A stretch of 64,000 nt of DNA, from the sequence record NC_052655.1; one strand, written 5' to 3'. The notes under the pieces were generated by a model. It was not told the origin of the DNA. It worked only from the letters and a program-made list of their open reading frames with translations, and searched no databases. A program made the translations under genes and the position numbers. This document shows, in pieces, positions 12,500-47,080 of the stretch. Source of the DNA: Escherichia phage alia. Within the stretch, counting starts at the first letter, position 1. Each line of letters begins with the position of its first letter.

Positions 12500-13474
12500 T
12501 TAAAGACTTTCAATAACTTGACGACGCAGTTCATTGGCATCTGCAAGATTATAATTAAGACGAACGTGTTCTGCAAGCATCATACCACGATCTTCTGTGT
12601 ATCTAGGGTTCCTCATTAGCTTGACAACTTCATAATGCCAAGATGCTTTAGAGTCTGCATAGATAACAGCCTTTGCATCTACCGGATTGAAGTACGGCAG
12701 CACAGGAGAACAGATAATAGGAAGACCCTTTGCACCTGCTTCCAAAATCTTCAAATTGCTTTTACAGTTGTTGAAGTCATTATCTACCAGGGGAGCAATT
12801 GCAATACTGTGACCGTCATACACAGACATATACTCACCTAAATTTTTAATAGCTGGTTTATACTGTGCATTTGGAATTTTACGTTTTATTTTAACCCACT
12901 CCGCAGTAGTTAGATACTGACTATTATTTCCAACAGGTGCAGAAGGATACACTTCATACCCTGCAATTGTCAATAGTGTATCATCAAATGTATTAGCTAC
13001 AAGAGATAAATCAGGCTCATGGCTTGCTCCTCCAGCCCAGATAATAGGTGTGTCAGAACTACGGTCTTTTGTCAAAGTAAATTGACCTTCGTCGTAAGGT
13101 AGTGCGTTTCTAATTACGACAACATTACGATTTAAATGACGAATTTTGTAAGCTAGGTATTCTGTTGTTACAGTAACAACATCTGCTAACTTAACCATCT
13201 CTACAATAGTCTTTGAATGATTAGTAAATACGCCAGCCATATAATGTTCAGGATTAAGTGAATAAAAATCATCTAAATCAACAATAATCTTAACACCTTG
13301 TGCCTTCAGGCGTTTAACCTCGTCTGCTCCACGAGAATACACTCTATTAAAAACTAAAACGTCTTTCTTAGGTTTAAACGTATTTCCAGCAAATGGCATT
13401 ACAATACGATGGTAATCACAACCACTGCCTAACTTATTATCACACTTAAGTACAGGAGTATTAGGATTTACCAT
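12500..13474 (-). CDS. putative glycosyltransferase, GT-B-like (paralog 2)
   Basis: 'KSNLKILEAGAKGLPIICSP'; start set at 'MVNPNTPV', which aligns with the paralog start and has a GAGGAGG RBS. Confidence 0.5.
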   Translation of the reverse strand: MVNPNTPVLKCDNKLGSGCDYHRIVMPFAGNTFKPKKDVLVFNRVYSRGADEVKRLKAQGVKIIVDLDDFYSLNPEHYMAGVFTNHSKTIVEMVKLADVVTVTTEYLAYKIRHLNRNVVVIRNALPYDEGQFTLTKDRSSDTPIIWAGGASHEPDLSLVANTFDDTLLTIAGYEVYPSAPVGNNSQYLTTAEWVKIKRKIPNAQYKPAIKNLGEYMSVYDGHSIAIAPLVDNDFNNCKSNLKILEAGAKGLPIICSPVLPYFNPVDAKAVIYADSKASWHYEVVKLMRNPRYTEDRGMMLAEHVRLNYNLADANELRRQVIESL

Positions 13475-14147
13475 ATTTTTGAGCCTCCTCATAAGAGATA
13501 AAAGTTTTACCATTGCGAAGATCCTCCAGGGATTGTTTATATTGTTCCCAGTTTACACCAATCCCCTGTTCTTTCTCTTCTTTTGACAGATTCGCAAAAG
13601 GTAAAGGATTGTCTCCAAATACATCATCAGGATGGATAAACGCCATAATTCGAATAGGACATGGCACGCCTTGAATACCTCGGTTCAAACCTGCCAGTGG
13701 AACGCGATGAATCCACTCTGCATCTTCATATCCATAACCGTGGGTGTATGAGCGGAAATAGCCAGCTTTCTCAATAACTGCACGGGAATACATACCAAAC
13801 TGGCACATACCTAGTTCCCAAATAACCACTTCCCCTTCAATACCTTTTACTTTATCTTTAAAGTATTCAGGCATACCAAAGAAATCCCAACCATTTTCCT
13901 TCGCCTGTTTTACAAAATATGTTTCCCAACCTTGAACAACAGGATAGCAATCATCATCAAAAATAAACCAGTAATCATACCCTTCATCATAAAACTTTTT
14001 CATCAGTTCATTACGAGCATATGCAACACCTTTTCGCTCCCGATCATACTGCACAACAAAAGTAGCATTAGGATCAGTCACAAGATAATCTTTAAGAGGA
14101 CGCTTACCTACAGTAATAACACCAACACCAATTTTTGTATTTTCCAA
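13461..14147 (-). CDS. putative glycosyltransferase, GT-A-like
   Basis: Possible DxD motif in 'WFIFDDDCYP'; 228 aa. Confidence 0.4.
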   Translation of the reverse strand: MENTKIGVGVITVGKRPLKDYLVTDPNATFVVQYDRERKGVAYARNELMKKFYDEGYDYWFIFDDDCYPVVQGWETYFVKQAKENGWDFFGMPEYFKDKVKGIEGEVVIWELGMCQFGMYSRAVIEKAGYFRSYTHGYGYEDAEWIHRVPLAGLNRGIQGVPCPIRIMAFIHPDDVFGDNPLPFANLSKEEKEQGIGVNWEQYKQSLEDLRNGKTFISYEEAQKYGKS

Positions 14148-14156
14148 AATAACTCC

Positions 14157-14720
14157 TTAAATAATTTTATTCATGTCTTGACAATGTAAAAGGTGTGAAA
14201 TAGCTTTTCTAGGATCATCATTACCTAAACGGTATGTGTGAAATAAATATAACCCACGTAGTAAACCTAGCCTTTTATTGTTAGCGTGCAATGCTTTAGA
14301 GAAAATTATATCAAACTGTATTGATCTTTCCTCAAAAGGGATTTCATTCCACAGACTCTTACGAAAGAGAAGAAAGAATCCTGCTAAGATAGCATCTGTA
14401 GGTACTTCCTCTATTGAGTTTCCCCATTCTAGATGTGCTCTTTTTGCAATCTCAATGTGGTGTAATATATTTGGATCTTCACTTCTTTCATTATTAAATA
14501 ATTGATATGTTGATCCCAATCTATTACAAGATGCACCAAGAACATCAAAATCAGGATTTGAACGGACTATTGATTCCAGCCAAGCAGGTTGTTCTGGAAG
14601 AAGAAACATTGTATCAATGTCTCTTAGGCAAATCCAACTATCTTCTGGTAAAACACTTATTGTGTCATTGATACCTTTTCCAATATCTCCAGAAAGATAG
14701 GGAGTTATGTGAAATATCAT
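14157..14720 (-). CDS. hypothetical protein, possible small glycosyltransferase
   Basis: 'RDIDTMF' could be a DxD-like motif; weak. Confidence 0.35.
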   Translation of the reverse strand: MIFHITPYLSGDIGKGINDTISVLPEDSWICLRDIDTMFLLPEQPAWLESIVRSNPDFDVLGASCNRLGSTYQLFNNERSEDPNILHHIEIAKRAHLEWGNSIEEVPTDAILAGFFLLFRKSLWNEIPFEERSIQFDIIFSKALHANNKRLGLLRGLYLFHTYRLGNDDPRKAISHLLHCQDMNKII

Positions 14721-15468: not shown

Positions 15469-15978
15469 TTAGCGATAGAATTGATGTTCTTTGTAGCGGT
15501 ACACTAGAACCATATCTTTTTCCCAGTGTGCTCTTATTGTAGATTTTTTAAAGTATAATGCTCCTTTTGTAATATCTAATGCAATTCGTAATTCTGGAAA
15601 ATGCGTATCGAGATAAAGTAGACGTTCTGCTATAGCCTTAGCTTCCTTCCACTTATCACGTTCCATAACGTTGAATGTCTTTGTGTAAGAGAATTGTCCT
15701 TTTTGAAACAAAACTTCTTTTATAGTATCAGGGAAATATGAATCTCTAGCCCTATTCAATACTACATTACCAACAGCAGACATACCGCGCTTTCCTTGAT
15801 TACGACTTTCTGCATAGATTGCACAAGCTAATAGATTTTCTTTACTATCACGCTTTGTACACTTGTGAACTACTTTAGCAGTTTTTACGTTTGCAGCTTC
15901 GGCTTGCGCCACGACAGGTGTAAATGTAAAAGCAGTTAAGGATAGTAACGCAATTGCGACAAAGGTTTTTATTGACAA
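15469..15978 (-). CDS. secreted SleB-type cell wall hydrolase
   Basis: N-terminal signal peptide 'IKTFVAIALLSLTAFTFTPVVAQA'; 'CAIYAESRNQGKRGMSAVGNVVLNRARDSYFPDTIKEVLFQKGQFS' matches the SleB/Hydrolase_2 core; TTG start with AGGAGG RBS. Confidence 0.65.
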   Translation of the reverse strand: MSIKTFVAIALLSLTAFTFTPVVAQAEAANVKTAKVVHKCTKRDSKENLLACAIYAESRNQGKRGMSAVGNVVLNRARDSYFPDTIKEVLFQKGQFSYTKTFNVMERDKWKEAKAIAERLLYLDTHFPELRIALDITKGALYFKKSTIRAHWEKDMVLVYRYKEHQFYR

Positions 15979-16701: not shown

Positions 16702-16726
16702 GCGCCCCGAAGGGCGCTATGATTTA
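16702..16726 (-). terminator. intrinsic terminator hairpin (GCGCCC-cgaa-GGGCGC)
   Basis: GC hairpin just downstream of the TerD-like stop codon. Confidence 0.4.
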
Positions 16727-17323
16727 TTACTCGAACCAATCGTCGCCAGCGCCAAACGCTTTAACTACATCATAAATGTCAAGTCCAGCTTTACCTACAC
16801 CATATGCTTTCAGTTTCCATTCGTTATCTTCCCGCACCAGGGAGGCAACGTGGCAAATGGTATTACCTGCAAGTTCTGGAGCCAAGAAGTCAAAGTCCAG
16901 CAGTTCAACGTTACGTTCATCATCGAAGATTTTAAGGAAACCTTCGGTAGCGTGACCAAGGCGTTTCTTACCCGTTTCGTCATCAATAGTAATTACGAAT
17001 GCAATTTCCTGTGCTTCAGCAGAGATATTATCCAGTGTAACATCAATCTGCTCCATTTGCCCTACACCGTCACGAACATCTTCACCTGCAAAAGTAGAAC
17101 GTTCAGGATCAAATTTCTGTGCGTAGCATACCAGGTGGCGAGGAGACAACAGTTCCGGCAGACCAGATGCATTGTGTCGGCAAATCAGAGCACTAACATC
17201 CAGATCCAGTTTTTCGTTAGATTTCCAAGAGAATTCCAGACGAATGCGTTTCAGTGCTGGTGCAATCTTTTTCAGAGAAACTTTTTCGCTAGAACCTTTT
17301 TTCAGGGAAATTTTCTGAGTCAT
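16727..17323 (-). CDS. TerD-family protein
   Basis: 'ISLKKGSSEKVSLKKIAPAL', 'DLDVSALI', 'FVITI' and 'NEWKLKAYGVG' align with E. coli TerD; AGGAGG RBS. Confidence 0.85.
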   Translation of the reverse strand: MTQKISLKKGSSEKVSLKKIAPALKRIRLEFSWKSNEKLDLDVSALICRHNASGLPELLSPRHLVCYAQKFDPERSTFAGEDVRDGVGQMEQIDVTLDNISAEAQEIAFVITIDDETGKKRLGHATEGFLKIFDDERNVELLDFDFLAPELAGNTICHVASLVREDNEWKLKAYGVGKAGLDIYDVVKAFGAGDDWFE

Positions 17324-17395
17324 AATTTATTACCTCCTTTGTTGTTAATTTACGTTGTCTATTTTACTAATCTTTTCTACAAAGTCAAGCGTTTT

Positions 17396-18190
17396 TTACG
17401 CTTTTGCTCCAAATTTTTTAACCCACTCGCCAAACTCTTCAGATAGCAGTTTATCGTAAAGTTCTTCGTCAGACAAGGACAAATCTGCAATACCGATAAA
17501 ATCAACATTATCGTATTCTTTTGCCAAGTCTTTCAGGAATTTAAAGTTTGCATTACCTACACCGACCATAAACCAGTAAACAGGAGTGTTGCGGTGTTTG
17601 TTCAGCAAACTACGTACTGCTGAAGTATCCATGTTCTCCCCGTCAGTTTGGAAGAAAATCATTGCAGGAGTACGATCAACTTGTGCATCAGTATCTACAA
17701 CCTGTTCTATAACAGTACGTGTAACTTCTACAAGTTCTTTTTTACCAGTTAGTTTAGCAAGGAAACCCTTAGCCGGAACTTCTTCATACTCAACGACTTG
17801 GCGTGTAATATTTTTCATAGGTACACTACCGAAGTATGTATCATAGATCTCTTGCATTACTGGAGCATAAGCAGTACCACCATTGATGCAAACATTAGAC
17901 ATACAAGAGCCGACATAATCATCATATACATCAGCCGTTGCAGGAGGCAGTTCAAAAGAAGAACTATTGAAAGCCCACATGTCAATCTGTGCATTATCAT
18001 CAAACTTCATACCAAACGGCAGCAGCTTACCTACAAAATCACTAACAGTGCCATCACGATACAGCTCACACATACTACCCGAAATATCTAAGGCGCTTCC
18101 GACACGAAGAACAACATCGTTAATCTTTTTCTTACGCAGAGATACGGTAAGAGTTTCTTGACGTTTTTTAAGACTGATTTTATTGGACAT
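17396..18190 (-). CDS. von Willebrand factor A domain protein (TerY-like)
   Basis: MIDAS motif 'DISGSM'; N-terminus 'ISLKKRQETLTVSLRKK' echoes the TerD N-terminus. Confidence 0.65.
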   Translation of the reverse strand: MSNKISLKKRQETLTVSLRKKKINDVVLRVGSALDISGSMCELYRDGTVSDFVGKLLPFGMKFDDNAQIDMWAFNSSSFELPPATADVYDDYVGSCMSNVCINGGTAYAPVMQEIYDTYFGSVPMKNITRQVVEYEEVPAKGFLAKLTGKKELVEVTRTVIEQVVDTDAQVDRTPAMIFFQTDGENMDTSAVRSLLNKHRNTPVYWFMVGVGNANFKFLKDLAKEYDNVDFIGIADLSLSDEELYDKLLSEEFGEWVKKFGAKA

Positions 18191-18191
18191 A

Positions 18192-18461
18192 TTATTTCTC
18201 CTTTCTGAGTGTAATGTTAGTAACTTCTAAATCCACTTCTACCATTTCTGTATCATATGAAATACAGCTAAGTTGACCTCTTTGTGAACCGTTCAGACAC
18301 ATTGCTTGGTTTGTATTAACTTTAATAAACACTAAGTTTCTGAACGTATCTAAACCAGAATCTTGATACGCAACATAATATACAAATGTATCACCTGCAT
18401 CAAGTTCTCCAAAACATTTAGGTTCATCTGATTCGTCGTCTTTGATATTAAATTTAAGCAC
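18192..18461 (-). CDS. hypothetical protein
   Basis: 89-aa ORF. Confidence 0.4.
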   Translation of the reverse strand: MLKFNIKDDESDEPKCFGELDAGDTFVYYVAYQDSGLDTFRNLVFIKVNTNQAMCLNGSQRGQLSCISYDTEMVEVDLEVTNITLRKEK

Positions 18462-19017
18462 TATCTTCTCCTTTACCTGCTCTCAAGCCTAAATAGAAAG
18501 CCTCTCTGGTGATCTTTTGCAACTCGTTTAAAGAGATAGTTACAACTAAATCATCTTCAATTTCTAGCTTTGAGTCTTCTTCTGTCTCAATGCAAGTATT
18601 ATGCACTTTGTGGTAAGGATTGTCAACACGTTTAAATTTATTATTTTCAGTGCTGAAGAAGCAATCTGGATCTTCTTCCCCATCACCCCAACCCTGGTTA
18701 GGATCTTCTTCAGATCTTTCTGTTGGGATCTCGCCTGTAAAGTGCTCTTCTAATACCAGAGCAATCCCATCTCCAAGATCGGAAGAGAACATCAAATTAC
18801 AAACTTCTTCCCAAGGCATAGACCACTTAAATCTTTTACGATTGCCATGTTTATCTTCTTCGTTAGAGAAAACACTACCATAGCTATCATAATTCCCATA
18901 CATCTCTTCGATAACCTTACCACCTTTCAAAAGAAATAGGTAGCAAGGAGAGCCATCGAAAGAGGTAGAAAGAGCAGCATTACCAGACTCTTTGCACAAG
19001 AAACTAAAACATCCCAT
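18454..19017 (-). CDS. hypothetical protein
   Basis: 187-aa acidic ORF. Confidence 0.45.
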   Translation of the reverse strand: MGCFSFLCKESGNAALSTSFDGSPCYLFLLKGGKVIEEMYGNYDSYGSVFSNEEDKHGNRKRFKWSMPWEEVCNLMFSSDLGDGIALVLEEHFTGEIPTERSEEDPNQGWGDGEEDPDCFFSTENNKFKRVDNPYHKVHNTCIETEEDSKLEIEDDLVVTISLNELQKITREAFYLGLRAGKGEDSA

Positions 19018-19217
19018 TATACACCAGCCTTAAGATCAATTATAGCCAAAGTTGTTTCAGAGTGTGTTTGCTCGTCTACAGGTGCAGTCATATGATAATA
19101 CAAAAAGTCTTCGGCATCATACCAATCTGACTCTTGACCTTGTTTCCAACCATCAATGAAAGCATCTTCCATAATGGTTTGTAACTCTTCACGAGTTAAG
19201 TGAATATCTTTACTCAT
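19017..19217 (-). CDS. hypothetical protein
   Basis: 66-aa ORF; start overlaps the upstream stop. Confidence 0.4.
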   Translation of the reverse strand: MSKDIHLTREELQTIMEDAFIDGWKQGQESDWYDAEDFLYYHMTAPVDEQTHSETTLAIIDLKAGV

Positions 19218-19450
19218 TACACATTCTCCTCTTTTACCAATTCCATCGTTGAACTATCAAAACCATCTTTAGAAGAATAGGTATAGACAGAACGTAGTTC
19301 TCGCAGGACAGTGAATACATTAGGATCATCTAACCAAGCATCCTGGAGGAGAACATAACGATCTTCATTGTCGTACTGGACGGCAATCATAGAACCAGAC
19401 AGTTTGTAAATTTTAATATTCATAATATATTTCTCCTTAAAGTAGACCAC
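19217..19450 (-). CDS. hypothetical protein
   Basis: 77-aa ORF. Confidence 0.4.
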   Translation of the reverse strand: MVYFKEKYIMNIKIYKLSGSMIAVQYDNEDRYVLLQDAWLDDPNVFTVLRELRSVYTYSSKDGFDSSTMELVKEENV

Positions 19451-20540
19451 GTTTAACAGTTTGAATCATACCATCTTCAAGAGATTGTACTTCTTGGATG
19501 TAATCAATACGAGCAGCACGGGCTTCAGTATTGATTCGGTTAGTTTCTTCTAACATTTTAACTAAGTTTTCTTGATCGCGACGTAATGTTTCAATATCCA
19601 ATACTTGACGATTAGCAAGTTGTGTAGCTTCAATTTGGTTTTGTGCAGCCAGATCACTACCCATTGCAATAGCAGCATTAAATTCGTTCAGTACATTGTT
19701 CTGTGTATCTGCTGCTTTCTTCTGGCGTAGACTTTCAATATACATAGAAAAGTTTGCAGAGTAAGCAGGGATAACATTATTCACAATATTACGGGCTGAT
19801 CGCATCAAACTTGCAGATACTTTCTGCATACTTTGTACACGTGGCCCCATCTGAACACACAGTAAACGCAAGGCTTTCAGGTCTGCAATACGAATTTCAA
19901 GCAGATCCATAGTATCACGAGTACGTTGACGCTCTTCTACTTCATTTTCAGGTAGTGTATTAAGGCGAACTTCTTCTTTTTCATAAGTAGCTGTTAGAAG
20001 CTCTATATCCCTGTTTAAGCTAAGAGCATATTTTGCAATAGCCTCTTCTAAACGTTGCAGATATCGTAAAGAATCTTCTTCTTTTTTCAAGTCTGTTTGG
20101 AGTGTCTTTACCAAACCTTCAATACGATTATTGATGGTGTCAAATTCTCCAAACAAATCTTCTTTCATACCTAAAACTTTCTTAAATAGTTTACCTAAAC
20201 CTTTAGATTGTTTAATAGAATTAGGATCAAGTTGCTTTGCTTGCTTAATAAGTGCGGTTAAACGTTCACTCATTTCATCTCCCTGGGATGAACGCTGGTG
20301 TTTAAGCACTTCGGCATTAAGGTTACGAAGAGTAAGTCCTGCATCAGCACCAACTTGTTCAATCTCTTCACGAGACATTGGAGGCAGCATTTGTACAGGT
20401 CGTGCAACAGCAGGGGCATATACAGGGCTTGCATCCATAGCACTTGGAGCAAACAAAGACTTACTTTTTTCTGTTGTTGCCGTGAATACACTCATTTCAG
20501 ACGGTTTGCTTTTTACGGCACTGATAAAAGGACTGGACAT
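19437..20540 (-). CDS. TelA-like protein (toxic anion resistance family), tentative
   Basis: 367-aa helical protein of TelA size sitting between the TerD/vWA and TerC genes; GGAGG RBS. Family call is by context and composition only. Confidence 0.45.
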   Translation of the reverse strand: MSSPFISAVKSKPSEMSVFTATTEKSKSLFAPSAMDASPVYAPAVARPVQMLPPMSREEIEQVGADAGLTLRNLNAEVLKHQRSSQGDEMSERLTALIKQAKQLDPNSIKQSKGLGKLFKKVLGMKEDLFGEFDTINNRIEGLVKTLQTDLKKEEDSLRYLQRLEEAIAKYALSLNRDIELLTATYEKEEVRLNTLPENEVEERQRTRDTMDLLEIRIADLKALRLLCVQMGPRVQSMQKVSASLMRSARNIVNNVIPAYSANFSMYIESLRQKKAADTQNNVLNEFNAAIAMGSDLAAQNQIEATQLANRQVLDIETLRRDQENLVKMLEETNRINTEARAARIDYIQEVQSLEDGMIQTVKRGLL

Positions 20541-20608
20541 TCAATTTCCTCCATATTCTTTAGTAGATGGTGATACCTCTGTACCACCATCATAACACAA
20601 ATTAAGTA

Positions 20609-21460
20609 TTAAACAAACATATCTAAATAATTTGTAGTAATAAATGCTCCATCTGCTTCCAGATTAACATAACCAGTAGCATTAGTGGTTAAGAAATCCA
20701 GATCGAAGGACTCTTTAACACCCCGTACCTCAACACGAGAGATATCGAATACAGGTAGTGTAACAGCCTCTTCGTGCAATACCGTACCTTTGTAGGTTGC
20801 CTTAATGATAAACTTGATATTACCCGTTCCAGCATCATACAAAACACTTTCAAACCCTTTGAGAGTATACTTATCACCAGAAGTGAAGTGCAAAGTTGCT
20901 TTGTTTACAGTACGTTTCTTACGAGGAGTTCCTTTCACACGTTTATGATCACTACGTTTTTTGTACTTAGGAATGAATACAAACGATACACTATCAAGAA
21001 AGGTATCAACATCAAGGATTTTAATATCCTCTGTTGCAGCAAATTTTGAAGTCGTTGCATCAAAATGCTTTTCCCTGCGATCATACATAAAGATATCAAA
21101 ACGATCTTCTAAATCAAACAAATTATGTATCTTAATTTCAGAATGCTTGCACATTGCAGCAACCTTAAACTCTTCAAAACGTGGGTGTTCTACCAGTTCT
21201 TCAAGTTTTACACCAAAGACAGTATATGGCTTCGAAGTTTTTTCTGGCGTTGGCATTACAGAAGCATAATCACCGATTGCGCTTTTAAAGCAAAATTGTT
21301 CTTGACCTGTATTTTTACCAACGAATTTACAATATTCGTCATCGTGCATACTTTCTTTGGTAGTACCAACAAACTCAAAACCATCTTTATTCTTCTCAAG
21401 AATTTCTTGATTAAAGATCCAACCTTCCAGGCGATACACTTTACCAACTTCTAGTTTCAT
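20609..21460 (-). CDS. hypothetical protein
   Basis: 283-aa ORF. Confidence 0.5.
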   Translation of the reverse strand: MKLEVGKVYRLEGWIFNQEILEKNKDGFEFVGTTKESMHDDEYCKFVGKNTGQEQFCFKSAIGDYASVMPTPEKTSKPYTVFGVKLEELVEHPRFEEFKVAAMCKHSEIKIHNLFDLEDRFDIFMYDRREKHFDATTSKFAATEDIKILDVDTFLDSVSFVFIPKYKKRSDHKRVKGTPRKKRTVNKATLHFTSGDKYTLKGFESVLYDAGTGNIKFIIKATYKGTVLHEEAVTLPVFDISRVEVRGVKESFDLDFLTTNATGYVNLEADGAFITTNYLDMFV

Positions 21461-21495
21461 CTGTTTCTCCTTCTTATTTAATCTGTATTAAATTA

Positions 21496-22086
21496 TTAAC
21501 GACGACGTGAGCTACTAAAACTACGTTTCGACGAAGAATAACTTTTCGAAGACTTACTATAAGAGCTAATAGGACTTGAGTAAGACTTACGAGCAGAGTA
21601 ATCACTATTCACTTTTGTTGTTGATGGGCGTGAATACGTTTGTACACTTTGCTGCTTAATTGTGTTTTGTTTAGTGGTTGTATATGTATTTACAGGTTTA
21701 TCATAAAAACTACGCTTTTGTGTTGTATATGATTTACTGTTAGTTGTAGGAGCAGCATTGTTATTAATAATGGTTGTGTTGCTACCACCATCTCTATAAC
21801 CACCACCGCCACTATTACCACTCAACATATGACCAAGAAGCATACCTGTAGCAAAGTCACCTACACCAGAAGAACCACTACCACCTCCTTGCACAACAAC
21901 TGTGGAAGGTTGTGCAGGTGCTGCTTGAACAACTTGAGGTGCAGGTTGATTTACATATTGTTCATCTACCATCTGATTTGGTGTTTGTTGGTAACGTTGA
22001 TTTTGTACATTTTCAGAATCATCACAACCTACCAGCAATGCACTACCTAAAACAACTGCAACAATAAAAGATTTAATGTTTTTCAT
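21496..22086 (-). CDS. putative lipoprotein, low-complexity Gly/Ser/Thr/Tyr-rich
   Basis: 'MKNIKSFIVAVVLGSALLVGC' is a signal peptide with lipobox LVGC; start moved to the internal Met with a GAGAGG RBS. Confidence 0.55.
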   Translation of the reverse strand: MKNIKSFIVAVVLGSALLVGCDDSENVQNQRYQQTPNQMVDEQYVNQPAPQVVQAAPAQPSTVVVQGGGSGSSGVGDFATGMLLGHMLSGNSGGGGYRDGGSNTTIINNNAAPTTNSKSYTTQKRSFYDKPVNTYTTTKQNTIKQQSVQTYSRPSTTKVNSDYSARKSYSSPISSYSKSSKSYSSSKRSFSSSRRR

Positions 22087-22279
22087 TTGTAACCCTCTCA
22101 TTTAAAGTCTCAACACAATTTTTAAAATCCCTAGAGAAACAATACATCTGTTCTCCGTTCCTGTTGATAGTAATTGTATGGTTATCAATATATGTTGTCA
22201 AGATAAAAATCAAACAAAATAACCCTAAAGCAAAACAAATATTTTCAAACAGAATCCAAAGAACACGTAAAACCACCAT
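22073..22279 (-). CDS. hypothetical small membrane protein
   Basis: 68-aa hydrophobic ORF. Confidence 0.35.
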   Translation of the reverse strand: MVVLRVLWILFENICFALGLFCLIFILTTYIDNHTITINRNGEQMYCFSRDFKNCVETLNERVTNEKH

Positions 22280-22289
22280 CAGATCACCT

Positions 22290-22310
22290 CAACAAAGCCC
22301 CCGAAGGGGC
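22290..22310 (-). terminator. intrinsic terminator hairpin (GCCCC-cgaa-GGGGC)
   Basis: GC hairpin 8 nt downstream of the TerC-like stop. Confidence 0.45.
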
Positions 22311-22318
22311 TTAATGAA

Positions 22319-23296
22319 TTAAGCAACAGTCTGGTCTTCTTTTTCAGGGAAGATTAAACTTGCAACAACACCCAACCCAAGAGTACCTAACACAATATAC
22401 ATACTGATCGTCGGATCAATGTGTGCTGGCAGGAAACTCATTTTTGCGTGCAGAGTTTCTGCAAACGGGTGATACATCAGTTTTACACCCACAAATACCA
22501 GGACTACGATAACTGCTTTCTCCAGATGAACCAAATACTTCAGTGCAACACTAAGAACAAAGAACAGAGCACGTAAACCTAAGATTGCACAGAGCATCGA
22601 AGAGAACACCAGCAGAGGTTCTTGTGTCACTGCAATTACTGCTGGAACAGAGTCTACTGCAAAGATTACGTCAACCATTTCCATTACAAACACACAAACC
22701 AGAGCCGGAGTTGCTACACGAACACCATTCTTGATTGTGAAGAACTTCTCACCATCCATCTGATCAGATACAGGGAACAGCTTACGAACAATGCGAGTAG
22801 CCCAGTGTTTAGAGTAATCAACTTCTGCATCATTATCTCCAGCGAATACCATTTTAGCCGCACAGAAAAGGATGACAGCACCGAAGAAGATATTAACATA
22901 CCAGCCCAAACTCAACAAGTAAGTGCCTACTGCTACAAACACACCTCGGAAGACAATCGCACCTGCAATACCCCAAAGTAGAATTTTGTGCTGCAAGTGT
23001 GTGCTTTTAATACCAAAACTTGCGAAGACTGCCACAAATACTACTAAGTTATCTACAGAAAGAGATTTCTCCAACACATACCCACTCAAGAACAAGCTCG
23101 CAAAATCAGCACCGTGTTGGAAGTATACAAAACCATAGTAGGCTAATGATACCCCAATCCAGAAAATTGACCAACCAACTGCCGATTTAAATGAAATCTC
23201 TTTGTTTTCTCTGTGTCCAAAGAAATCAATACAAATCGACAAGACTAAAATACCCACTAAAACAACCACATCAATAATTGGGAAACCCAGTTGCAT
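22319..23296 (-). CDS. TerC-family integral membrane protein
   Basis: Multi-pass hydrophobic protein with 'LSVDNLVVFVAVF' and 'DVIFAVDSVPAVIAVT', the two signature motifs of TerC; AGGAGA RBS. Confidence 0.8.
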   Translation of the reverse strand: MQLGFPIIDVVVLVGILVLSICIDFFGHRENKEISFKSAVGWSIFWIGVSLAYYGFVYFQHGADFASLFLSGYVLEKSLSVDNLVVFVAVFASFGIKSTHLQHKILLWGIAGAIVFRGVFVAVGTYLLSLGWYVNIFFGAVILFCAAKMVFAGDNDAEVDYSKHWATRIVRKLFPVSDQMDGEKFFTIKNGVRVATPALVCVFVMEMVDVIFAVDSVPAVIAVTQEPLLVFSSMLCAILGLRALFFVLSVALKYLVHLEKAVIVVLVFVGVKLMYHPFAETLHAKMSFLPAHIDPTISMYIVLGTLGLGVVASLIFPEKEDQTVA

Positions 23297-23373
23297 TCTT
23301 TTCTCCTCTTTAATGCGGAGGACAATCCTCCGCTCTATGTCGTATACTATAAACTGTTTTTAAAGAAAGTCAA

Positions 23374-23622
23374 CTAGTTCAGTTCTGTAATTTTAAGTTT
23401 ATCTTCTTTGTTAATGATAGGGAAAGCTACAGCATCACCTACATCATCAATAAAGCAAATAGCAAGACCACCTTCCACTTTGCTAACCTGACCATTAAAG
23501 GCGTGATACGGGGCAGGAACAATATCTCCATCTTCAAGGAGAATAGCCTCATAAACCTTACCAATAGTACAATCACGAGTGTTTTTAAATTTTTCAAGCA
23601 CTTCAACATTTACTTTACGCAT
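23374..23622 (-). CDS. hypothetical protein
   Basis: 82-aa ORF. Confidence 0.4.
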   Translation of the reverse strand: MRKVNVEVLEKFKNTRDCTIGKVYEAILLEDGDIVPAPYHAFNGQVSKVEGGLAICFIDDVGDAVAFPIINKEDKLKITELN

Positions 23623-23636: not shown

Positions 23637-23843
23637 TTATTTGTTAGATTGAAAGATACCACGAAGTACCGCAAGAATGAACGTCACACAGACTACACTC
23701 CAAAACGTTACAGGAACATGATGCCAGTCTAAACCGATAATGTCAATCATATAGTTGTATGCTAAAAGCAGTAGCCAACTAGGGATTAACACAATCAAGA
23801 ACACAACAATAAAACAACCTAATACTGCTAAAACACCTGCCAT
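23637..23843 (-). CDS. hypothetical small membrane protein
   Basis: 68 aa, two hydrophobic helices. Confidence 0.4.
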   Translation of the reverse strand: MAGVLAVLGCFIVVFLIVLIPSWLLLLAYNYMIDIIGLDWHHVPVTFWSVVCVTFILAVLRGIFQSNK

Positions 23844-23852: not shown

Positions 23853-24569
23853 TTATTTCAGTTTGTAAACAATTACATTTAAACCTTTGTTCACTAGAGT
23901 TTCTTCGATCATAAGTTTTACAATATTCCAAGAACCTCCAGCCAAACCACAACCAAGCATTGGTAAACCTACAATTTTACCGCCTGAAGATACAACATCG
24001 TCTCCCATACTATCTAACGCATTGTAGATAGCTTCATAATTCAGGTCACGCTTACCTTCCTCACGACGACTATAACCATATTGTCCATATAAATTATAAA
24101 TTGTCAAATTGTTTTCTGTATATTTGGTAAACGTACCTAATTTTTTATAATCACCACGTTTAGTGGCACAATCTGCTTTAAACGCACCAGGCCACTTGCT
24201 TTTAATTTTTGGTGCAATACCACTACCCATAGTGCAAAAACAGTTACAGCAGTGTGCTATAGCGTCTATATCGCCTCTCTCGGCTGCTGCTAAAAGATCA
24301 CCGTATACCTCAATGATACCTGCCGGATAACTTGTTACAATTTCATCTTCCCAATACATTTTCTCTACACCACCGATCAGTGCAAAGTTTTGTGTAATGC
24401 GATCATCAATATAGTTAAGACCTGAAACATACACAGCGTATTCATCCTGTGCTGTAATACCTTGCACACGAATTCTTAAGACACCATCTTTATCTGTTGC
24501 TACACGCCCAAAATCTTTTTCTGTAATATTGGTGATAGGATCTCCGAAAGTCATTACTTTATTAGACAT
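23853..24569 (-). CDS. macro-domain protein (putative ADP-ribose binding/processing)
   Basis: 'DAIAHCCNCFCTMGSGIAPKI' and 'GKIVGLPMLGCGLAGGSW' resemble macro-domain motifs; start set at 'MSNKVMTF', just past the upstream stop. Confidence 0.55.
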   Translation of the reverse strand: MSNKVMTFGDPITNITEKDFGRVATDKDGVLRIRVQGITAQDEYAVYVSGLNYIDDRITQNFALIGGVEKMYWEDEIVTSYPAGIIEVYGDLLAAAERGDIDAIAHCCNCFCTMGSGIAPKIKSKWPGAFKADCATKRGDYKKLGTFTKYTENNLTIYNLYGQYGYSRREEGKRDLNYEAIYNALDSMGDDVVSSGGKIVGLPMLGCGLAGGSWNIVKLMIEETLVNKGLNVIVYKLK

Positions 24570-25419
24570 AATAATCCCCTTTAACATTAGGTTTGTTGAT
24601 AATGTTGCTTTCAAAAAATTGACGTAGGAAATCAAAGTTCTCTTTGTATTTTTCAATGTTATTGTAACCTTCTGCAAGGCAACCAAAGAACAGTTGTTCT
24701 ACATAATACAAAGGAAGTTGTGAAAGTGCAATTTTAAAATCAACTTCGCTTTGACTCATTAGATACTTAATAGGACGAACCAAACATTTAGCATCAGCTT
24801 CTTGCTTAATCATTTTAATAAAAGCTGCCAGATTATTGATATAGTTGAAGTTAAGTGCAGCTTCGGTGTTGGCTTCTGTACCTTCATACTTTGCAAAGTA
24901 CAGGAAAAACGTATCGTTTTCAACACCTTCTTTGTCTAAAATTTCAATAAGTTTTTCTTCGTGTGTTCCTGTAATATTAACATCATCAATGAAAATCAGA
25001 GTTTTATTACCCCAGAAATCACGATTGATAGAGAAAGTGTCACCATCGATCAAAGCCTTACGATCTTCTTTGCTAAGAAATCCATAATCATTGATATAGC
25101 TCACTTTACGATGAACGATATCCCACTCCACTGCTTTACCCCCTTTGATAGAGATTAGGTAGTTGAGGTGATCTACAAAATGTTCAGATAACACTGTAGC
25201 TGCATTTTTCACATAGTTATATGGAGATGGAATAACAACAAAACTTTCATTTACCAGTCGTTCTTCATACTTAGAAAAGAAACTTTCAGCCAGAATGCGT
25301 CCCATTCTTTTTGCTGCCTGGTTACTACCAAACTTCAGTTTGGAATAATCTGCAATGTTAAATTTTGCTTCCTTCAGGTTAGTAAAAGTATTAGCAAAAT
25401 GTTGAATTTGATTACGCAT
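24562..25419 (-). CDS. type I phosphoribosyltransferase-like protein
   Basis: PRPP-binding-like motif 'TLIFIDDVNITGTH'. Confidence 0.6.
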   Translation of the reverse strand: MRNQIQHFANTFTNLKEAKFNIADYSKLKFGSNQAAKRMGRILAESFFSKYEERLVNESFVVIPSPYNYVKNAATVLSEHFVDHLNYLISIKGGKAVEWDIVHRKVSYINDYGFLSKEDRKALIDGDTFSINRDFWGNKTLIFIDDVNITGTHEEKLIEILDKEGVENDTFFLYFAKYEGTEANTEAALNFNYINNLAAFIKMIKQEADAKCLVRPIKYLMSQSEVDFKIALSQLPLYYVEQLFFGCLAEGYNNIEKYKENFDFLRQFFESNIINKPNVKGDYYV

Positions 25420-26068
25420 TAATAAGTTCCTCTTTTTTAAGTTTAGCCAACAAGTCTTCTGGATTAATAATATGACAGAACTTCATCCCTATGTCAACAG
25501 CTTTCCCATCATAGATCAAACTATCTCCAACGTGTAAAATCTCCTCTGGTGCGAGATCAAACGTTACCATTTCATCAAAAGAGAGTTTAAAAAACCTGGG
25601 ATCTGGTTTACACAAGCAAAACTCATCAGAAAAATGCATAAAATCGAATGGTAATTTTGTCAAGCCAGAATATACAGCTAAGAAACTACCAGGTACAAAA
25701 TTGGTATTGCTTTTAATACTCAAAGAATAGGTTGAACTTAGCTCTTCCAACTTCTTGCAAAGTTCAGGGTTTAATATTGGAGGATGTTTTATAAACATTG
25801 CTAAACAGTCTCTTTTTAACCCATCTACTTTATCAAGATCAATGTTCAAATGAGCAGAAAGTGTTTCCCAAGCATTTCTAGATGTTCCACAAATGCCTTT
25901 TTCTGCTTTTAAATCCAGGAGAGTTTTTACCTCTTTATATACGGTAGCTGCTTCTGCCTCAGAACAAGAGGCATACTCGGCAATAACCTTGTTGCGCTCT
26001 TCTGCATACAAAGGATTAGCAGTAATAAGAGTATTCCATACATCAAAAGAAATATGCTTAACAGTCAT
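25412..26068 (-). CDS. HAD-superfamily hydrolase
   Basis: 'FDVWNTLI' (motif I-like) and 'VGDSLIYDG' (motif IV-like); start moved to 'MTVKHISFD' with a GGAGG RBS. Confidence 0.5.
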   Translation of the reverse strand: MTVKHISFDVWNTLITANPLYAEERNKVIAEYASCSEAEAATVYKEVKTLLDLKAEKGICGTSRNAWETLSAHLNIDLDKVDGLKRDCLAMFIKHPPILNPELCKKLEELSSTYSLSIKSNTNFVPGSFLAVYSGLTKLPFDFMHFSDEFCLCKPDPRFFKLSFDEMVTFDLAPEEILHVGDSLIYDGKAVDIGMKFCHIINPEDLLAKLKKEELINA

Positions 26069-26237
26069 TTTTAATCCTCCGTCCAAAAGAATATCATCTG
26101 CTTAATTTTATTGATTTCTTGATGTAGTAACTTTCCAGCATGTGATTGATCTTTAATATTGACAGCAAGAATTTCAAGTTCCGTTAGTTTTTCTTGGATA
26201 GCTTTATATTCATCATCTGTAAGCATTTTCTTCCCCT

Positions 26238-26441
26238 TTAGAATGGTAATCTTTGTATGTCACTTATCCCCACACCCAGAAGTCTAGCAATATCCTTATC
26301 TAAAAGCAACTCTTTTTGTTCTAAAATGTTAATCAAATCTCCTAATACTTCTTTAATGTCACGATCATTTTTAGCAACGTGACCACCTGCGGTATCAACT
26401 TTATCTTTAAAAACAAAATAATGATCCATAATACCCTCCAT
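26238..26441 (-). CDS. hypothetical protein
   Basis: 67-aa ORF; no clear RBS. Confidence 0.3.
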   Translation of the reverse strand: MEGIMDHYFVFKDKVDTAGGHVAKNDRDIKEVLGDLINILEQKELLLDKDIARLLGVGISDIQRLPF

Positions 26442-26450
26442 ATAAATAAA

Positions 26451-26475
26451 GGAGGCTTTCGCCTCCTTTTATCAC
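26451..26475 (-). terminator. intrinsic terminator hairpin (GGAGGC-tttc-GCCTCC)
   Basis: Perfect 6-bp stem with flanking T-run, directly downstream of the ATPase stop. Confidence 0.5.
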
Positions 26476-27656: not shown

Positions 27657-28127
27657 TTAGTCAGATTCCCAAATGTTGTCTTTCTTAATCCACATTCGTT
27701 GATTATCTGAACCTCTATAACGTTTCGTTGTTGGTTGATTCATATCATACTTACCATCTATCACTATGTCAACCAGTTTTTTAATTTTTTCTGGAATTTC
27801 TTCAAAAAGATATCCTGTATATAAGACAATATCTTTTTTGTTTCCAAAACAATCTCTTACCTTCTCAAGAACATACTCTACAGTGTCAATGTTCTCTTTG
27901 TCAAGAGGTTCACCACCTAAAACTGTTAATCCTTTAATGAAAGGTCGAGATAAATCTTTCAAGATAAGATCTAATGTTTCAGTAGTGAACTCTTGTCCGT
28001 AGTTATACGACCAGGCTTTCTGGTTGAAGCAGCCACGGCAACCGTGGCTACAACCGCTCACCCACAAAGAGCATCTTACACCGTCACCGTTGAGCATGTC
28101 AACAGGTTCATATCCGGCATAATTCAA
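27657..28127 (-). CDS. nrdG: anaerobic ribonucleotide reductase activating protein (radical SAM)
   Basis: 'CSHGCRGC' radical-SAM CxxxCxxC cluster; 156 aa; immediately downstream of NrdD. Confidence 0.8.
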   Translation of the reverse strand: MNYAGYEPVDMLNGDGVRCSLWVSGCSHGCRGCFNQKAWSYNYGQEFTTETLDLILKDLSRPFIKGLTVLGGEPLDKENIDTVEYVLEKVRDCFGNKKDIVLYTGYLFEEIPEKIKKLVDIVIDGKYDMNQPTTKRYRGSDNQRMWIKKDNIWESD

Positions 28128-29923
28128 AAATGTTTCTCCCTTTCCAGTACCTCTTGCATTTTACCTTTATTATAAGGGCGAGAGTTAGGGGCAGACAGGT
28201 ATCCTGACACTCTTCTGATTACAGATATAGATTCTTCCTCATGATTGCCACAACTTGGACACTCGAAGCCTTTAGCTGTTGCCTTAAATTCACCATGAAA
28301 ACCACATTTGAAACACTGATCTACAGGTTGGTTCACGCCAAAATAAGGAATTTTGTTGTAGGCATAATCTACAAGAGTTTCCAGTGCTTGCAAGTTATTT
28401 TTAAGGTTTGGTGTTTCTACATAACCTATGTTCCCACCATTACTGATTTGTGCAAAACCTTCCTCATAATCCCACTTTTGGAACGGGGTAGTGTGCATCC
28501 ACACAGGTTGATGGAAAGAGTTTGTCAAGTAGTCACGATCAATAGAACCAGGATAGCGATCATTTAATGCTTTGGCAAATTTATAGCACAAGGATTCTGC
28601 TGGTGTTCCATACAAACTAAAAGCTAAACCAGAACGTTCTTTAAATGTGCCACAGATATCCTTCATATATTGAAGGATGTTTTTACCCATTGCTTTTGGA
28701 TTGGTGTTACCTGGGTATAAAATCTCCATAGCTTCTGCTAAACCTACATAACCGATACTAATAGAGGCATAACCACCTTCGAATAGTTTACCAATCTCTT
28801 CATTAGCTTCTAGTCGAGCTAAAGCCCCTTCCATAAACAATGTAGGGTTTTGGGATGCTTTGGTATGTCTAATACGGTTAACACGTAGTATATGTGCCTT
28901 ATACGCCATCTCCATATGTTGTTCCAACAGTTCAGTAAATAAGATGCCCTTTTCACGGGACTCTGCTGCAATGATAGGTAAGTTTAAAGAAACTACACCT
29001 AAGTTGAAACGACCATCATATTTTTCACCTTGCTCTGTTGCATAGTATGACAAGAAGCTACGGCAACCCATGCTTGTGACGCGACCATCTGAAGATCCTG
29101 TAACTTCTTTGTTTAAAGGTACAGAGATAAAATCAGGATAAATGCGTTCAGCACAACACTCCATTGCCAGTTGCTTCAAATCATAGTTTGGATCGCCAGC
29201 TTTCATGTTAACACCATCTTCCAAGAAGAAGATAACTTTAGGAAACACAGGAGTTACCCTATCTTTTCCTAATCCTTGTTTGTGCACCATTAGGTAGTTT
29301 TTAGTGATCATTCTACCAAAAGCAGAGGTATCCAAACCTAAACTAATTGTTATAAAAGGTGACTGACCATTTACACTCATTAGGGTGTTCACCTGGTAGA
29401 TTAAAGTTTGCATTGCATCATAGACCTGTTTATCTACCATACGCATAGCAATATCATAATCGCCAACATCGGCATATATTTTGTTAAAACTTGCTTTAAC
29501 GTATTGACTAAGCCCAGTATCAATATGTGCACAAGTTTGTCCACCATATTGGCTAGAAGCTACTGCTTGAATAATTTGAGTTAGGACAGTAGTTGCTACA
29601 CCTATAGACTTTGGTTTTTCAATATGTGCATTACCAATACGGAAACCGTTCTCAAGCATATCTTGGTAATTTACCAGGCAACAATTAGTTAGAGGTGAGA
29701 GTAAATAATCTAAATCGTGAATGTGACCATACCCACTTTTGTGCCATTCTGCCAGATCATCCGGTAAAATATGGGTCATTGCCATGTGCTTGCTTAGGAT
29801 ACCTGCTAGTAAGTCTCGGTGAGTATTAACAATCATTGCAGGTTTGTTTGCATTTTCACGAGTAAATTCTTCGGATGTTTGTTCGAGGAATCCGATTACA
29901 TCCTCATATAGTTTTTGGGTCAT
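28124..29923 (-). CDS. nrdD: anaerobic ribonucleoside-triphosphate reductase
   Basis: C-terminal glycyl-radical motif 'RVSGY' preceded by the Cys cluster 'CFKCG...CPSCG'; start moved to the Met with a GGAGGA RBS (track start 29953). Confidence 0.9.
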   Translation of the reverse strand: MTQKLYEDVIGFLEQTSEEFTRENANKPAMIVNTHRDLLAGILSKHMAMTHILPDDLAEWHKSGYGHIHDLDYLLSPLTNCCLVNYQDMLENGFRIGNAHIEKPKSIGVATTVLTQIIQAVASSQYGGQTCAHIDTGLSQYVKASFNKIYADVGDYDIAMRMVDKQVYDAMQTLIYQVNTLMSVNGQSPFITISLGLDTSAFGRMITKNYLMVHKQGLGKDRVTPVFPKVIFFLEDGVNMKAGDPNYDLKQLAMECCAERIYPDFISVPLNKEVTGSSDGRVTSMGCRSFLSYYATEQGEKYDGRFNLGVVSLNLPIIAAESREKGILFTELLEQHMEMAYKAHILRVNRIRHTKASQNPTLFMEGALARLEANEEIGKLFEGGYASISIGYVGLAEAMEILYPGNTNPKAMGKNILQYMKDICGTFKERSGLAFSLYGTPAESLCYKFAKALNDRYPGSIDRDYLTNSFHQPVWMHTTPFQKWDYEEGFAQISNGGNIGYVETPNLKNNLQALETLVDYAYNKIPYFGVNQPVDQCFKCGFHGEFKATAKGFECPSCGNHEEESISVIRRVSGYLSAPNSRPYNKGKMQEVLEREKHF

Positions 29924-29934
29924 TAATCCTCCGT

Positions 29935-29964
29935 GGAAAATAAAAGCCAGCATTAAGCTGGCTT
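29935..29964 (-). terminator. intrinsic terminator hairpin (AAGCCAGC-attaa-GCTGGCTT)
   Basis: 8-bp stem followed by a T-run on the minus strand, downstream of gene 30013-30963. Confidence 0.5.
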
Positions 29965-46573: not shown

Positions 46574-46633
46574 TTGACACTGAAAAATAATTTGGTAATA
46601 TATACCACATAAGGCGGGAAATGGTTTCCCGCC
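46574..46633 (+). promoter_or_regulatory. promoter + 5' stem-loop module
   Basis: TTGACA-N17-AATATA followed by 'GGCGGGAAATGGTTTCCCGCC' (9-bp stem). Confidence 0.6.
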
Positions 46634-46658
46634 AGGCCATCAAAGAAAGGGTAACACA

Positions 46659-47021
46659 ATGAGCAAGCAAATCAATACTATCATGTTAAACCTGGTATCT
46701 TTCCGCGACGACGTGAAAAATCTTCCACGTGATGCAGTGGATGCACGGATCGAAAGCTATCGCTCACAGATCGCAACGCTACCGCTAAAACGTGATCAAC
46801 ATGCCGCTAATATGATGCTTAATGCTATGCTTAAAAAGATGATTCAATGTGATCTTACTCTGGCTTATGAATATGCTGGCGATCTTTTTGTAACATATAA
46901 CAAGCCCGTTCCAGGTATGAGCACCACGGAAGAATTGCATGCCTTAAATCTGCGACAAGATGCATGGGATAACATGCGCCGTGTTATGGTATGGGTAGAA
47001 AGCGGTAAAATTTACGAATAA
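46659..47021 (+). CDS. hypothetical small protein (cassette gene)
   Basis: 120 aa; RBS AAAGGG. Confidence 0.5.
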   Translation: MSKQINTIMLNLVSFRDDVKNLPRDAVDARIESYRSQIATLPLKRDQHAANMMLNAMLKKMIQCDLTLAYEYAGDLFVTYNKPVPGMSTTEELHALNLRQDAWDNMRRVMVWVESGKIYE

Positions 47022-47027
47022 AAACGG

Positions 47028-47080
47028 TTGACATTGCACTAAAACCTGATAAGCTATCTTAAAGCGGGAATAGTTCCCGC
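47028..47080 (+). promoter_or_regulatory. promoter + 5' stem-loop module
   Basis: TTGACA-N16-TAAGCT followed by 'GCGGGAATAGTTCCCGC'. Confidence 0.55.

Follow-up and report, generated by a model that had tools for sequence, protein, structure and literature searches.

What might genes of the tellurite-resistance (Ter) families, which for some 30 years have been associated with resistance against tellurite, colicins and phages without a mechanism, be doing in a lytic phage? The question is raised by Escherichia phage alia (NC_052655.1), of which a stretch of 64,000 nucleotides (the window) was analyzed; a first-pass annotation, made from the sequence alone, had reported there a TerD, a vWA, a TelA-like and a TerC gene, and these four open reading frames (ORFs) were found at precisely the reported coordinates, all on the minus strand. 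As judged from its gene content, the block they belong to is a minimal member of a “TelA-type hub” group, not a classical terZABCDEF tellurite-resistance operon. Such accessory modules are already known from phages, with only putative functions; the reading favored here, tentatively and at somewhat less than an even chance, is that it is expressed early and protects the envelope and the cation balance of the infected cell. Profile calls on the four ORFs were made at the curated gathering cut-offs of Pfam, with TerC additionally scored against NCBIfam:

16727–17323, minus strand: TerD, single-domain (PF02342, 4.1e-28, 98.6 bits, cut-off 25.3; PDB 2kxt, 8e-15)
17396–18190, minus strand: vWA protein, stand-alone, TerF C-terminal type (PF10138, 5.1e-39, 134.9 bits, cut-off 29.4; motif alignment)
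19437–20540, minus strand: TelA, all-helical, toxic-anion-resistance family (PF05816, 5e-35, 121.6 bits, cut-off 30)
22319–23296, minus strand: TerC/Alx-subfamily inner-membrane protein (PF03741, 1.2e-38, 133.1 bits, cut-off 27.8; TIGR03718)

All four proteins thus lie above the gathering cut-offs of their families. The calls of TerD and TerC, which had been put forward as strong, hold: TerD contains the motifs ‘LDLDVSAL’, ‘IAFVITIDD’ and ‘NEWKLKAYGVG’, and TerC passes the NCBIfam TerC/Alx model TIGR03718 (323.6 bits versus a cut-off of 246.4) with both half-motifs, ‘SLSVDN’ and ‘AVDSVPA’, intact. TelA had been proposed from context; the family was right and the grading was not, the profile match being strong and spanning positions 13–330 of 332. 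The label “TerY-like” given to the vWA protein proved incorrect: the protein is of the TerF C-terminal type and scores below the cut-off of the generic VWA profile PF00092, whereas TerY of an IncHI2 plasmid, in exactly the opposite way, matches PF00092 and not PF10138. Its metal ion-dependent adhesion site (MIDAS; DISGS...GGT...TDG, with the reported ‘DISGSM’) is intact and kept in four phage orthologues. Relatives of TelA occur in 243 phage records; the nearest bacterial ones are 21–27% identical, while identity across phage contigs of about 150 kb is at least 39%, and a sequence search of the PDB gave no relative. The acidic loop of TerD reads GEDVR-DGVG-QME, with the first DLD site kept and three acidic positions lost; the canonical loop, GDN(R/L)TGxGxG-DDE, is found in TerZ/D/E, in Burkholderia and Otagovirus TerD and in the TerD of contig L012.

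Is this phage DNA at all? The first-pass annotation had considered that the stretch might be bacterial, which can be dismissed: the Ter block is phage DNA, because genomes of Justusliebigvirus (phi92-like, Stephanstirmvirinae) match 10.5 kb around it at 98.5% identity, 52 phage records span at least 80% of these 10.5 kb, the flanks are phage genes, and the GC content is uniform, being the same in the block as in the rest of the window. The setting is, as had been described, a replication and nucleotide-metabolism region, with DNA polymerase and primase/helicase on one side and NrdD, NrdG and UvrD on the other. The block is also a long-resident phage copy and not a recent capture, because TelA, TerD and the vWA protein are distant from the bacterial and plasmid copies (at most 32% identity of TerD to any plasmid TerD, at most 36.5% for vWA). 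Relatives at least 60% identical to the TelA of the window and to its phosphoribosyltransferase (PRTase; see below) are found in about 130 phage records each. Nei-Gojobori ratios of nonsynonymous to synonymous differences (pN/pS) against phage Paula (about 98% nucleotide identity) amount to 0.079 for the block, 0.014 for TelA, 0.037 for the PRTase, 0.049 for TerD, 0.070 for TerC and 0.089 for vWA, which points to strong purifying selection on functional genes. TerC is the exception as to origin: it is 47% identical to TerC of an IncHI2 plasmid and sits in a promoter-gene-terminator cassette of its own, so that its kinship with an enterobacterial plasmid gene could be quoted for recent bacterial cargo, or an assembly contamination, without any role in the phage. 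That reading is refuted by the many phage relatives, by the synteny of the Stephanstirmvirinae loci examined, by the pN/pS of 0.08, by the identities of at most 27–37% of TelA, TerD and vWA to any bacterial or plasmid copy and by a GC content equal to that of the genome.

Whether the four families belong together was assessed by searching related loci with each protein of the block (tblastn), and this comparison showed the core to be syntenic across three Stephanstirmvirinae lineages. In Phapecoctavirus, the order is HAD hydrolase, PRTase, a shorter Macro protein, gp184, TerC, gp181, the lipoprotein gp180 and TelA, and onward from there gp176, gp175, gp174, vWA, TerD and a cell-wall hydrolase (the additional genes are introduced below). 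In the divergent Klebsiella phage 05F01, TelA (39.5% identity), vWA (63%) and TerD (48%) are accompanied by a gp180-like lipoprotein, the C-terminus of gp179, gp176, gp174 and the hydrolase; the TerC slot of this phage is occupied by DUF475, a TerC-superfamily paralogue (5e-93) which also has a promoter, hairpin and terminator, and the slot looks like one at which cassettes are exchanged. In the unrelated Pseudomonas Otagovirus phiPsa267, TelA, vWA-TerF, TerC and TerD lie inside 4 kb, and a Burkholderia plasmid carries a TelA/vWA-TerF/DUF475/TerD cluster whose vWA is, among plasmid copies, the closest to that of the phage (36.5%). Clustering of the four hub genes is thus seen in Justusliebigvirus, Phapecoctavirus, 05F01, Otagovirus and the Burkholderia plasmid, and this recurrence in independent lineages, together with the swap of a paralogue into the membrane slot, is good evidence from gene order that the four families act together. 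Helical ORFs of contig L012 were considered as TelA candidates, which could not be established (Pfam negative, hhalign probability below 10%).

How far does the block extend? The four Ter genes are present as reported, but the 6.6-kb limit assigned to them is too small: the block is larger, 9.7 kb with 18 genes, because a HAD-PRTase_3-Macro operon (23853–26068) lies directly upstream and two strong terminators bracket the whole:

26448–26469, minus strand: intrinsic-terminator hairpin AAAGGAGGC-GAAA-GCCTCCTTT with T-rich tail; upstream boundary, after an AAA ATPase gene
25412–26068, minus strand: HAD-superfamily hydrolase (PF00702, 1.2e-5, 26.2 bits, just under the cut-off of 26.4)
24562–25419, minus strand: PRTase_3, ComF-like, Ter-associated (PF15610, 9.1e-42); overlaps the HAD gene by 8 nt
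23853–24569, minus strand: Macro-domain protein of the TARG1/DarG/SCO6735 class (Pfam Macro, 3.1e-7); overlaps the PRTase gene by 8 nt
16702–16717, minus strand: intrinsic terminator GCGCCC-TTCG-GGGCGC; downstream boundary, after TerD

The upstream terminator has an annotated counterpart in phage Paula. Because neighbors overlap by 8 nt at each junction, the three operon genes are probably translationally coupled. The HAD protein is matched by several HAD models of NCBIfam (E 4e-9 to 4e-4), all under their cut-offs; its motif I is atypical, FDVWNTL in every orthologue and also in PDB 2om6, with the nucleophilic Asp present. The label “phosphatase” is not safe, because the Asp+2 position is Trp. 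In PRTase_3, the loop for phosphoribosyl pyrophosphate (PRPP), DDVxITGxHE, is intact and invariant in 31 sequences, and an AlphaFold2 (AF2) model with a predicted local distance difference test (pLDDT) score of 91.6 combines a type I PRTase core, for which HGPRT, ComF and PyrR are the nearest structures, with a C-terminal helical domain specific to the family. An attempt to read the substrate from the fold was abandoned, as the likeness is to a generic type I core only (TM-scores 0.35–0.41) and no substrate can be called. HAD stands directly upstream of PRTase_3 in all seven contexts, and the pair adjoins TerC, TerD and vWA again in the independent contig L012. The Macro protein has an N-terminal extension of 85–90 residues which is specific to Justusliebigvirus and lacking from the Phapecoctavirus copy. 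As a separate observation, genes of NAD/ADP-ribose metabolism recur near Ter and PRTase_3 genes: in a Rhizobium phage, the HAD-PRTase_3 pair adjoins an NMNAT/NUDIX gene, and in Otagovirus phiPsa267 (L010, 1–3672) the Ter cluster is a few kb from genes for NamPT and a PRPP synthetase.

When is the hub transcribed? A sigma70-like promoter of its own precedes TerC as well as TerD, and a hairpin follows each gene; behind TerD, this hairpin is the terminator at the block boundary. The other signals are:

23315–23373, minus strand: early-type promoter cassette of TerC, TTGACT-16-TATAGT, with a hairpin in the 5′-untranslated region, GCGGAGGA-ttg-TCCTCCGC (23333–23315)
22295–22312, minus strand: terminator-like hairpin AAGCCCC-TTCG-GGGGCTT followed by TGTT, 3′ of TerC (read from the sequence)
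17361–17388, minus strand: sigma70-like promoter TTGACT-16-TAAAAT before TerD; Justusliebigvirus-specific, absent in Phapecoctavirus nepoznato and in 05F01

The hairpin after TerC is also found at the position behind TerC/DUF475 in nepoznato and 05F01. The promoter pattern TTGAC-N-TAnnnT has 53 matches in the window, 26 of them in the non-coding 18% of the sequence. The 35-kb minus-strand replication block has just five of these non-coding matches, and TerD and TerC are each preceded by one of the five. The leader of TerC (promoter, ‘CATAG’, GC hairpin, Shine-Dalgarno sequence (SD)) copies the cassette found at no fewer than 12 plus-strand early promoters at 46–55 kb, which suggests that TerC is transcribed with the early gene class. 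The same layout, with different stems, precedes TerC/DUF475 in two other genera. A regulatory hairpin specific to TerC was considered and rejected, the leader being the generic early cassette. This cassette (46574–54506, plus strand; copy at 23373–23315, minus strand) consists of TTGACA-N16/17-TAnnnT, about 6 nt, ‘CAYATAG’, a GC hairpin (GGCGGGAAATGGTTTCCCGCC or variants) and SD plus ATG; at least 12 copies stand before small early ORFs, the stems differ between phage genera and the layout is kept. Promoter/stem-loop cassettes of T4-type phages resemble it.

With these parts at hand, the favored reading can be spelled out. Soon after infection, a TerC/Alx-type cation transporter, one TerD β-sandwich protein, a TerF-type vWA with its MIDAS and a long-helical TelA would assemble on the cytoplasmic side of the inner membrane; TerC would shift divalent cations (Mn2+/Ca2+), TerD, vWA and TelA would form a membrane-proximal complex, and the hub would stabilize the envelope and the ion balance against superinfecting phages and pore-forming colicins until the programmed lysis by the phage itself. 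The PRTase/HAD pair might make or trim a nucleoside-type small molecule signaling to, or feeding, the hub complex; in the Anantharaman–Aravind model of 2012, a Ter-linked biosynthetic arm for a nucleoside-like metabolite reportedly plays this part. The idea of hub protection derives from plasmid ter loci, which, according to papers citing Whelan (1995), give phage inhibition (Phi) and colicin resistance (PacB). It is in line with the family identities, the intact MIDAS, TerC and PRPP motifs, the purifying selection, the core synteny and the host-type promoters.

A number of points speak against this reading. Half of the canonical acidic Ca2+ loop (GDNRTGEGDGDDE) is gone in Stephanstirmvirinae TerD, so Ca2+ binding by the phage protein may be weak, reduced or absent. 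The HAD protein is without the general acid/base at Asp+2. Cases of HAD-PRTase_3 without Ter genes are frequent (XaC1, Rhizobium and Caulobacter phages, contigs L013 and L014), and in 05F01 the PRTase_3 (69% identical) is unlinked to the Ter core, lying outside the 25 kb around it; for these reasons the pair appears to be a separable sub-module, recurrently but not always linked to the hub, and its tie optional. The AF2 model of TelA (pLDDT 56.5) is too poor for a fold search or any structural claim. TerB, the presumed link of the Ter complex with the membrane and with ligands, is missing: no ORF of the block matches it, and tblastn of IncHI2 TerB against the window gave a best E of 0.087. Early timing is read from promoter type only, and a literature search found no experiment on any phage Ter gene. 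Computation cannot separate the favored reading from its rivals. A sharper version of it, in which a TelA/vWA/TerD assembly, TerC flux and a PRTase_3/HAD-derived nucleoside act as an early shield that blocks both superinfection and depolarizing effectors of abortive infection (Abi), is improbable in that full form; if true, it would offer the first clean genetic system for a Ter mechanism sought since the 1990s, as the phage infects E. coli K-12, which to our knowledge has no ter operon. In any case, a minimal four-gene hub in lytic phages that plate on K-12, with relatives in the BASEL collection, is a tractable test bed.

A rival reading is counter-defense, in which the hub would stabilize the inner membrane against pore-forming or depolarizing Abi effectors and the DarG-like Macro protein would undo ADP-ribosylation-based defense; we consider this unlikely, if deserving of attention. 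The Macro protein matches PADLOC DarG (1.5e-13) and PDB 5e3b, 2fg1, TARG1 and DarG. The NCBIfam DarG model gives 48.4 bits against a cut-off of 250, over the macro domain only, with no DarT present, so that the protein is a relative of DarG by fold class and not a member of a DarTG system; it could reverse a DarT-like, ADP-ribosylation-based defense. That a macrodomain of the DarG/TARG1 class is co-operonic with PRTase/HAD, that the hub genes have host-type or early promoters and that plasmid ter, according to the papers citing Whelan, protects against pore-forming colicins all fit counter-defense, as does the very broad lysis host range of phi92-like phages (PMC8594841). However, the PADLOC scan of vWA and nine other proteins of the block and its neighborhood matched no defense model except DarG (the Macro protein), hence none with the hub proteins. 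The BASEL data moreover show high sensitivity to restriction-modification and no unusual evasion of immunity (PMC8594841), and counter-defense overlaps mechanistically with the protection of envelope and ion balance favored above.

TerC by itself invites another scenario, metal and ion housekeeping, in which it exports or redistributes Mn2+/Ca2+ for phage enzymes or periplasmic metalation, with TerD, vWA and TelA as regulators and no competitor as target. TerC belongs to the Alx/TerC “metal homeostasis” subfamily, and proteins of the TerC family export Mn2+ and metalate exoenzymes in Bacillus subtilis and E. coli; the MIDAS of vWA is intact, and the block stands among nucleotide-metabolism genes. 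In Jug phages, a Ca2+ P-type ATPase accompanies terD (PMC12880540). Housekeeping leaves unexplained, though, why TelA and vWA are constantly retained with the transporter, and the metal loop of TerD is degenerate. Riboswitches often precede bacterial Alx/TerC genes; a search of 14–28 kb with Rfam at E ≤ 1 found nothing relevant, and so no metal-sensing one. Taken together, this scenario seems rather doubtful to us.

The remainder of the block consists of small ORFs, a lipoprotein and passengers. Their features are as follows:

26238–26429, minus strand: gp189-like small ORF, 63 aa, first gene past the terminator; 51% identical Phapecoctavirus homologue at the same position
26071–26226, minus strand: gp188-like small ORF, 51 aa (sequence and annotation of relatives)
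23637–23843, minus strand: gp184-like small protein with two transmembrane segments, 60% identical in Phapecoctavirus
23374–23622, minus strand: gp183-like small ORF, 82 aa
22073–22279, minus strand: gp181-like protein with a single transmembrane segment, 68 aa, kept in Phapecoctavirus
21496–22086, minus strand: gp180-like lipoprotein, lipobox LLVG/C, with disordered S/T/Q-rich tail; conserved in three lineages
20609–21460, minus strand: gp179-like protein, 283 aa, conservation limited to the C-terminal part
19217–19423, minus strand: gp177-like small ORF
19017–19217, minus strand: gp176-like small acidic protein; straight after TelA in 05F01, two small ORFs further in nepoznato
18454–19017, minus strand: gp175-like protein, the N-terminal domain being a widespread phage family
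18192–18461, minus strand: gp174-like small β-rich protein, always directly upstream of the vWA gene

The lipoprotein mentioned in the first-pass annotation is thus indeed among the interleaved genes. It is always near the TerC/DUF475 gene; in three lineages, the residues next to the lipidated Cys are acidic (C-DD, C-ED and C-DE), and a patch resembling a glycine zipper, GVGxFAxGxLLGHxLSG, is conserved in an otherwise disordered protein. Together with gp174, gp176 and the C-terminus of gp179, gp180 is co-conserved within Stephanstirmvirinae only, and that any of these are Ter components is unproven. The case of gp175 was decided: its N-terminal 140 residues or so have 297 homologues at 45–65% identity, mostly metagenomic and without a Pfam model; in unrelated phages, members of the family are encoded amid early genes and genes of replication, and no Ter genes were nearby in any of three distant contexts. 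It was therefore rejected as a Ter component, and since gp175 is a passenger, interleaving does not imply membership in the module.

Downstream of the block, at 15469–15978 on the minus strand, lies a cell-wall hydrolase resembling SleB (PF07486, 6.5e-20). It carries a Sec-type signal peptide that is cleavable (…VVAQA/EA) and is annotated as endolysin in some records. Lysis timing is a further candidate function: the hub would keep the membrane energized and the hydrolase inactive until the holin fires, and premature lysis would be prevented. In favor of this, the hydrolase has its signal peptide and directly follows TerD in nepoznato and 05F01, and in the window only one extra gene (gp171) stands between the two. 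Yet the adjacency is lineage-specific, as neither Otagovirus nor the Burkholderia plasmid nor L012 shows it; between TerD and the hydrolase, which is only a putative endolysin, stands a terminator, and the spanins of phi92 are encoded about 55 kb from TelA, so that lysis timing is, in our estimate, quite improbable. The pair gp181/gp180 was also considered as spanins and rejected, the spanins of phi92 and phAPEC8 being different and located at 55.7–56.3 kb of phi92. With Asp at +2, which predicts inner-membrane retention of E. coli lipoproteins, gp180 is not an o-spanin.

Further observations concern the surroundings. NrdD of nepoznato (L002, 1–2239) is annotated as two parts around a 510-bp ORF, which could reflect insertion of an intron or mobile element; unlike it, NrdD of the window (28124–29953) is one intact gene encoding 609 aa. 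On the minus strand at 13461–14720 are two probable glycosyltransferase genes, one with a weak match to TET-associated glycosyltransferase (TAGT; 3.9e-5, below cut-off), in a region where relatives of the window have four adjacent glycosyltransferases annotated; a putative dTDP glycosylation machinery of phi92-like phages is mentioned in the BASEL paper. Five records named as Campylobacter, Acinetobacter, Pseudomonas or Serratia phages (MG065639, MG065650, OP562383, OR584014 and OK210077) contain TelA or PRTase loci of the Stephanstirmvirinae type, those of MG065639 and OK210077 being 99% identical to the window and those of the other three 65–78%, as in E. coli Phapecoctaviruses; the host labels of all five may be unreliable.

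How much of this is new? The first-pass annotation had implied novelty, for which there is no support, as the gene content is already known. Records of phi92 and its relatives have carried the labels “stress protein”, “toxic anion resistance”, “membrane bound tellurium resistance”, “orotate PRTase”, “phosphatase” and “hydrolase”, in the case of phi92 since 2012, and a cocktail metagenome paper of 2015 flags phi92 gp172, gp173 and gp178 as Ter proteins (PMC4690881). The set of terC, terF-vWA, terD and telA has been published for the virulent phages PhiPsa374 (PMC9796965) and phiKp34, and Iyer et al. (2021; PMC7824862) described Ter systems with PRTase/HAD in jumbo phages, mentioned “related smaller tailed phages” and proposed that phage Ter competes with superinfecting phages. 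A paper of 2026 found phage terD genes to be highly transcribed in the gut, one of them beside a pspA-like gene (PMC12880540). Genus-level papers on the phages considered here do not discuss the Ter block. That a lytic phage uses Ter genes for manipulation of the host or for competition is a reasonable proposal, and not a new one.

The names of the families also suggest that the host is literally given resistance to tellurite or xenobiotics, and Iyer et al. raise the possibility that xenobiotics are tolerated in the course of pseudolysogeny (PMC7824862). However, the phage is lytic, TerB and the TerZ/A/E paralogues are absent, and the authors of PMC9796965 are equally negative for their phage; literal resistance is very improbable, and for practical purposes the block does not determine resistance to tellurite. 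For phage-therapy dossiers this means that “tellurite resistance” labels here do not indicate a transferable resistance operon. The difference becomes clear by comparison with the IncHI2 locus of pSE12-01738-1 (NZ_CP027678, R478 type), which contains terZ, A, B, C, D, E and F, terW, X and Y and a biosynthetic arm of ATP-grasp, PRTase_2+TRSP, a HAD-like protein, StiP+PELOTA and an HpcH lyase. Common to both are TerC (47%), a TerD-domain protein, a TerF-type vWA domain and a linked pair of PRTase and HAD-like protein; but the phage vWA is stand-alone and that of IncHI2 fused to a TerD domain, the phage PRTase is PRTase_3 instead of PRTase_2+TRSP or StiP+PELOTA, and TelA is present in the phage only. 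With the IncHI2 proteins as queries, only TerC and the vWA domain of TerF were found in the 64-kb window; ATP-grasp, StiP and TerW/X/Y matched nothing there, HpcH gave a best E of 0.11, and the window has a single TerD-domain gene, with no TerZ/A/E paralogue. The absence of TerB, of extra TerD paralogues, of ATP-grasp and of the lyase is the reason why the block is placed, on gene content, outside the classical operons.

Other systems were compared as well. With the TerY-P triad (TerY vWA, Ser/Thr kinase and PP2C) the likeness is confined to a vWA protein with a “Ter” name, and even its family differs; Pfam scans of the block revealed no kinase or PP2C domain, and PADLOC no TerY-P match. The yceCDEFGH operon of Bacillus subtilis resembles the hub in that envelope stress controls a set of TerD paralogues, a Mn exporter of the TerC family and a TelA-like protein. 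It differs by the number of its TerD paralogues, of which there are several, by the lack of a TerF-type vWA, by its chromosomal location and by its control through extracytoplasmic-function (ECF) sigma factors. On plasmid byi_2p of Burkholderia sp. YI23 (CP003091, 148.8–151.7 kb), the same four Pfam families are clustered and co-directional, with TelA, vWA and TerD in the same order as in the phage and DUF475 as the membrane part, as in 05F01; identity is only 26–37%, and the TerD loop is canonical there and degenerate in the phage, which, unlike the plasmid, has phage-only small ORFs, a lipoprotein and passengers interleaved and is organized in several transcription units with early-type promoters. 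The same terC, terF-vWA, terD and telA set is reported for PhiPsa374/Otagovirus, in phiKp34, in Acinetobacter phage ME3, which is reported to have PRTase and HAD also (PMC7824862), and in Caulobacter jumbo phages. Otagovirus differs from the window by a short YjbE-like TerC, a canonical TerD loop, confinement to 4 kb and the lack of HAD/PRTase nearby; at only 20–30% identity, the hub of phage alia and the phage Ter clusters reported before are separate lineages of the same kind.

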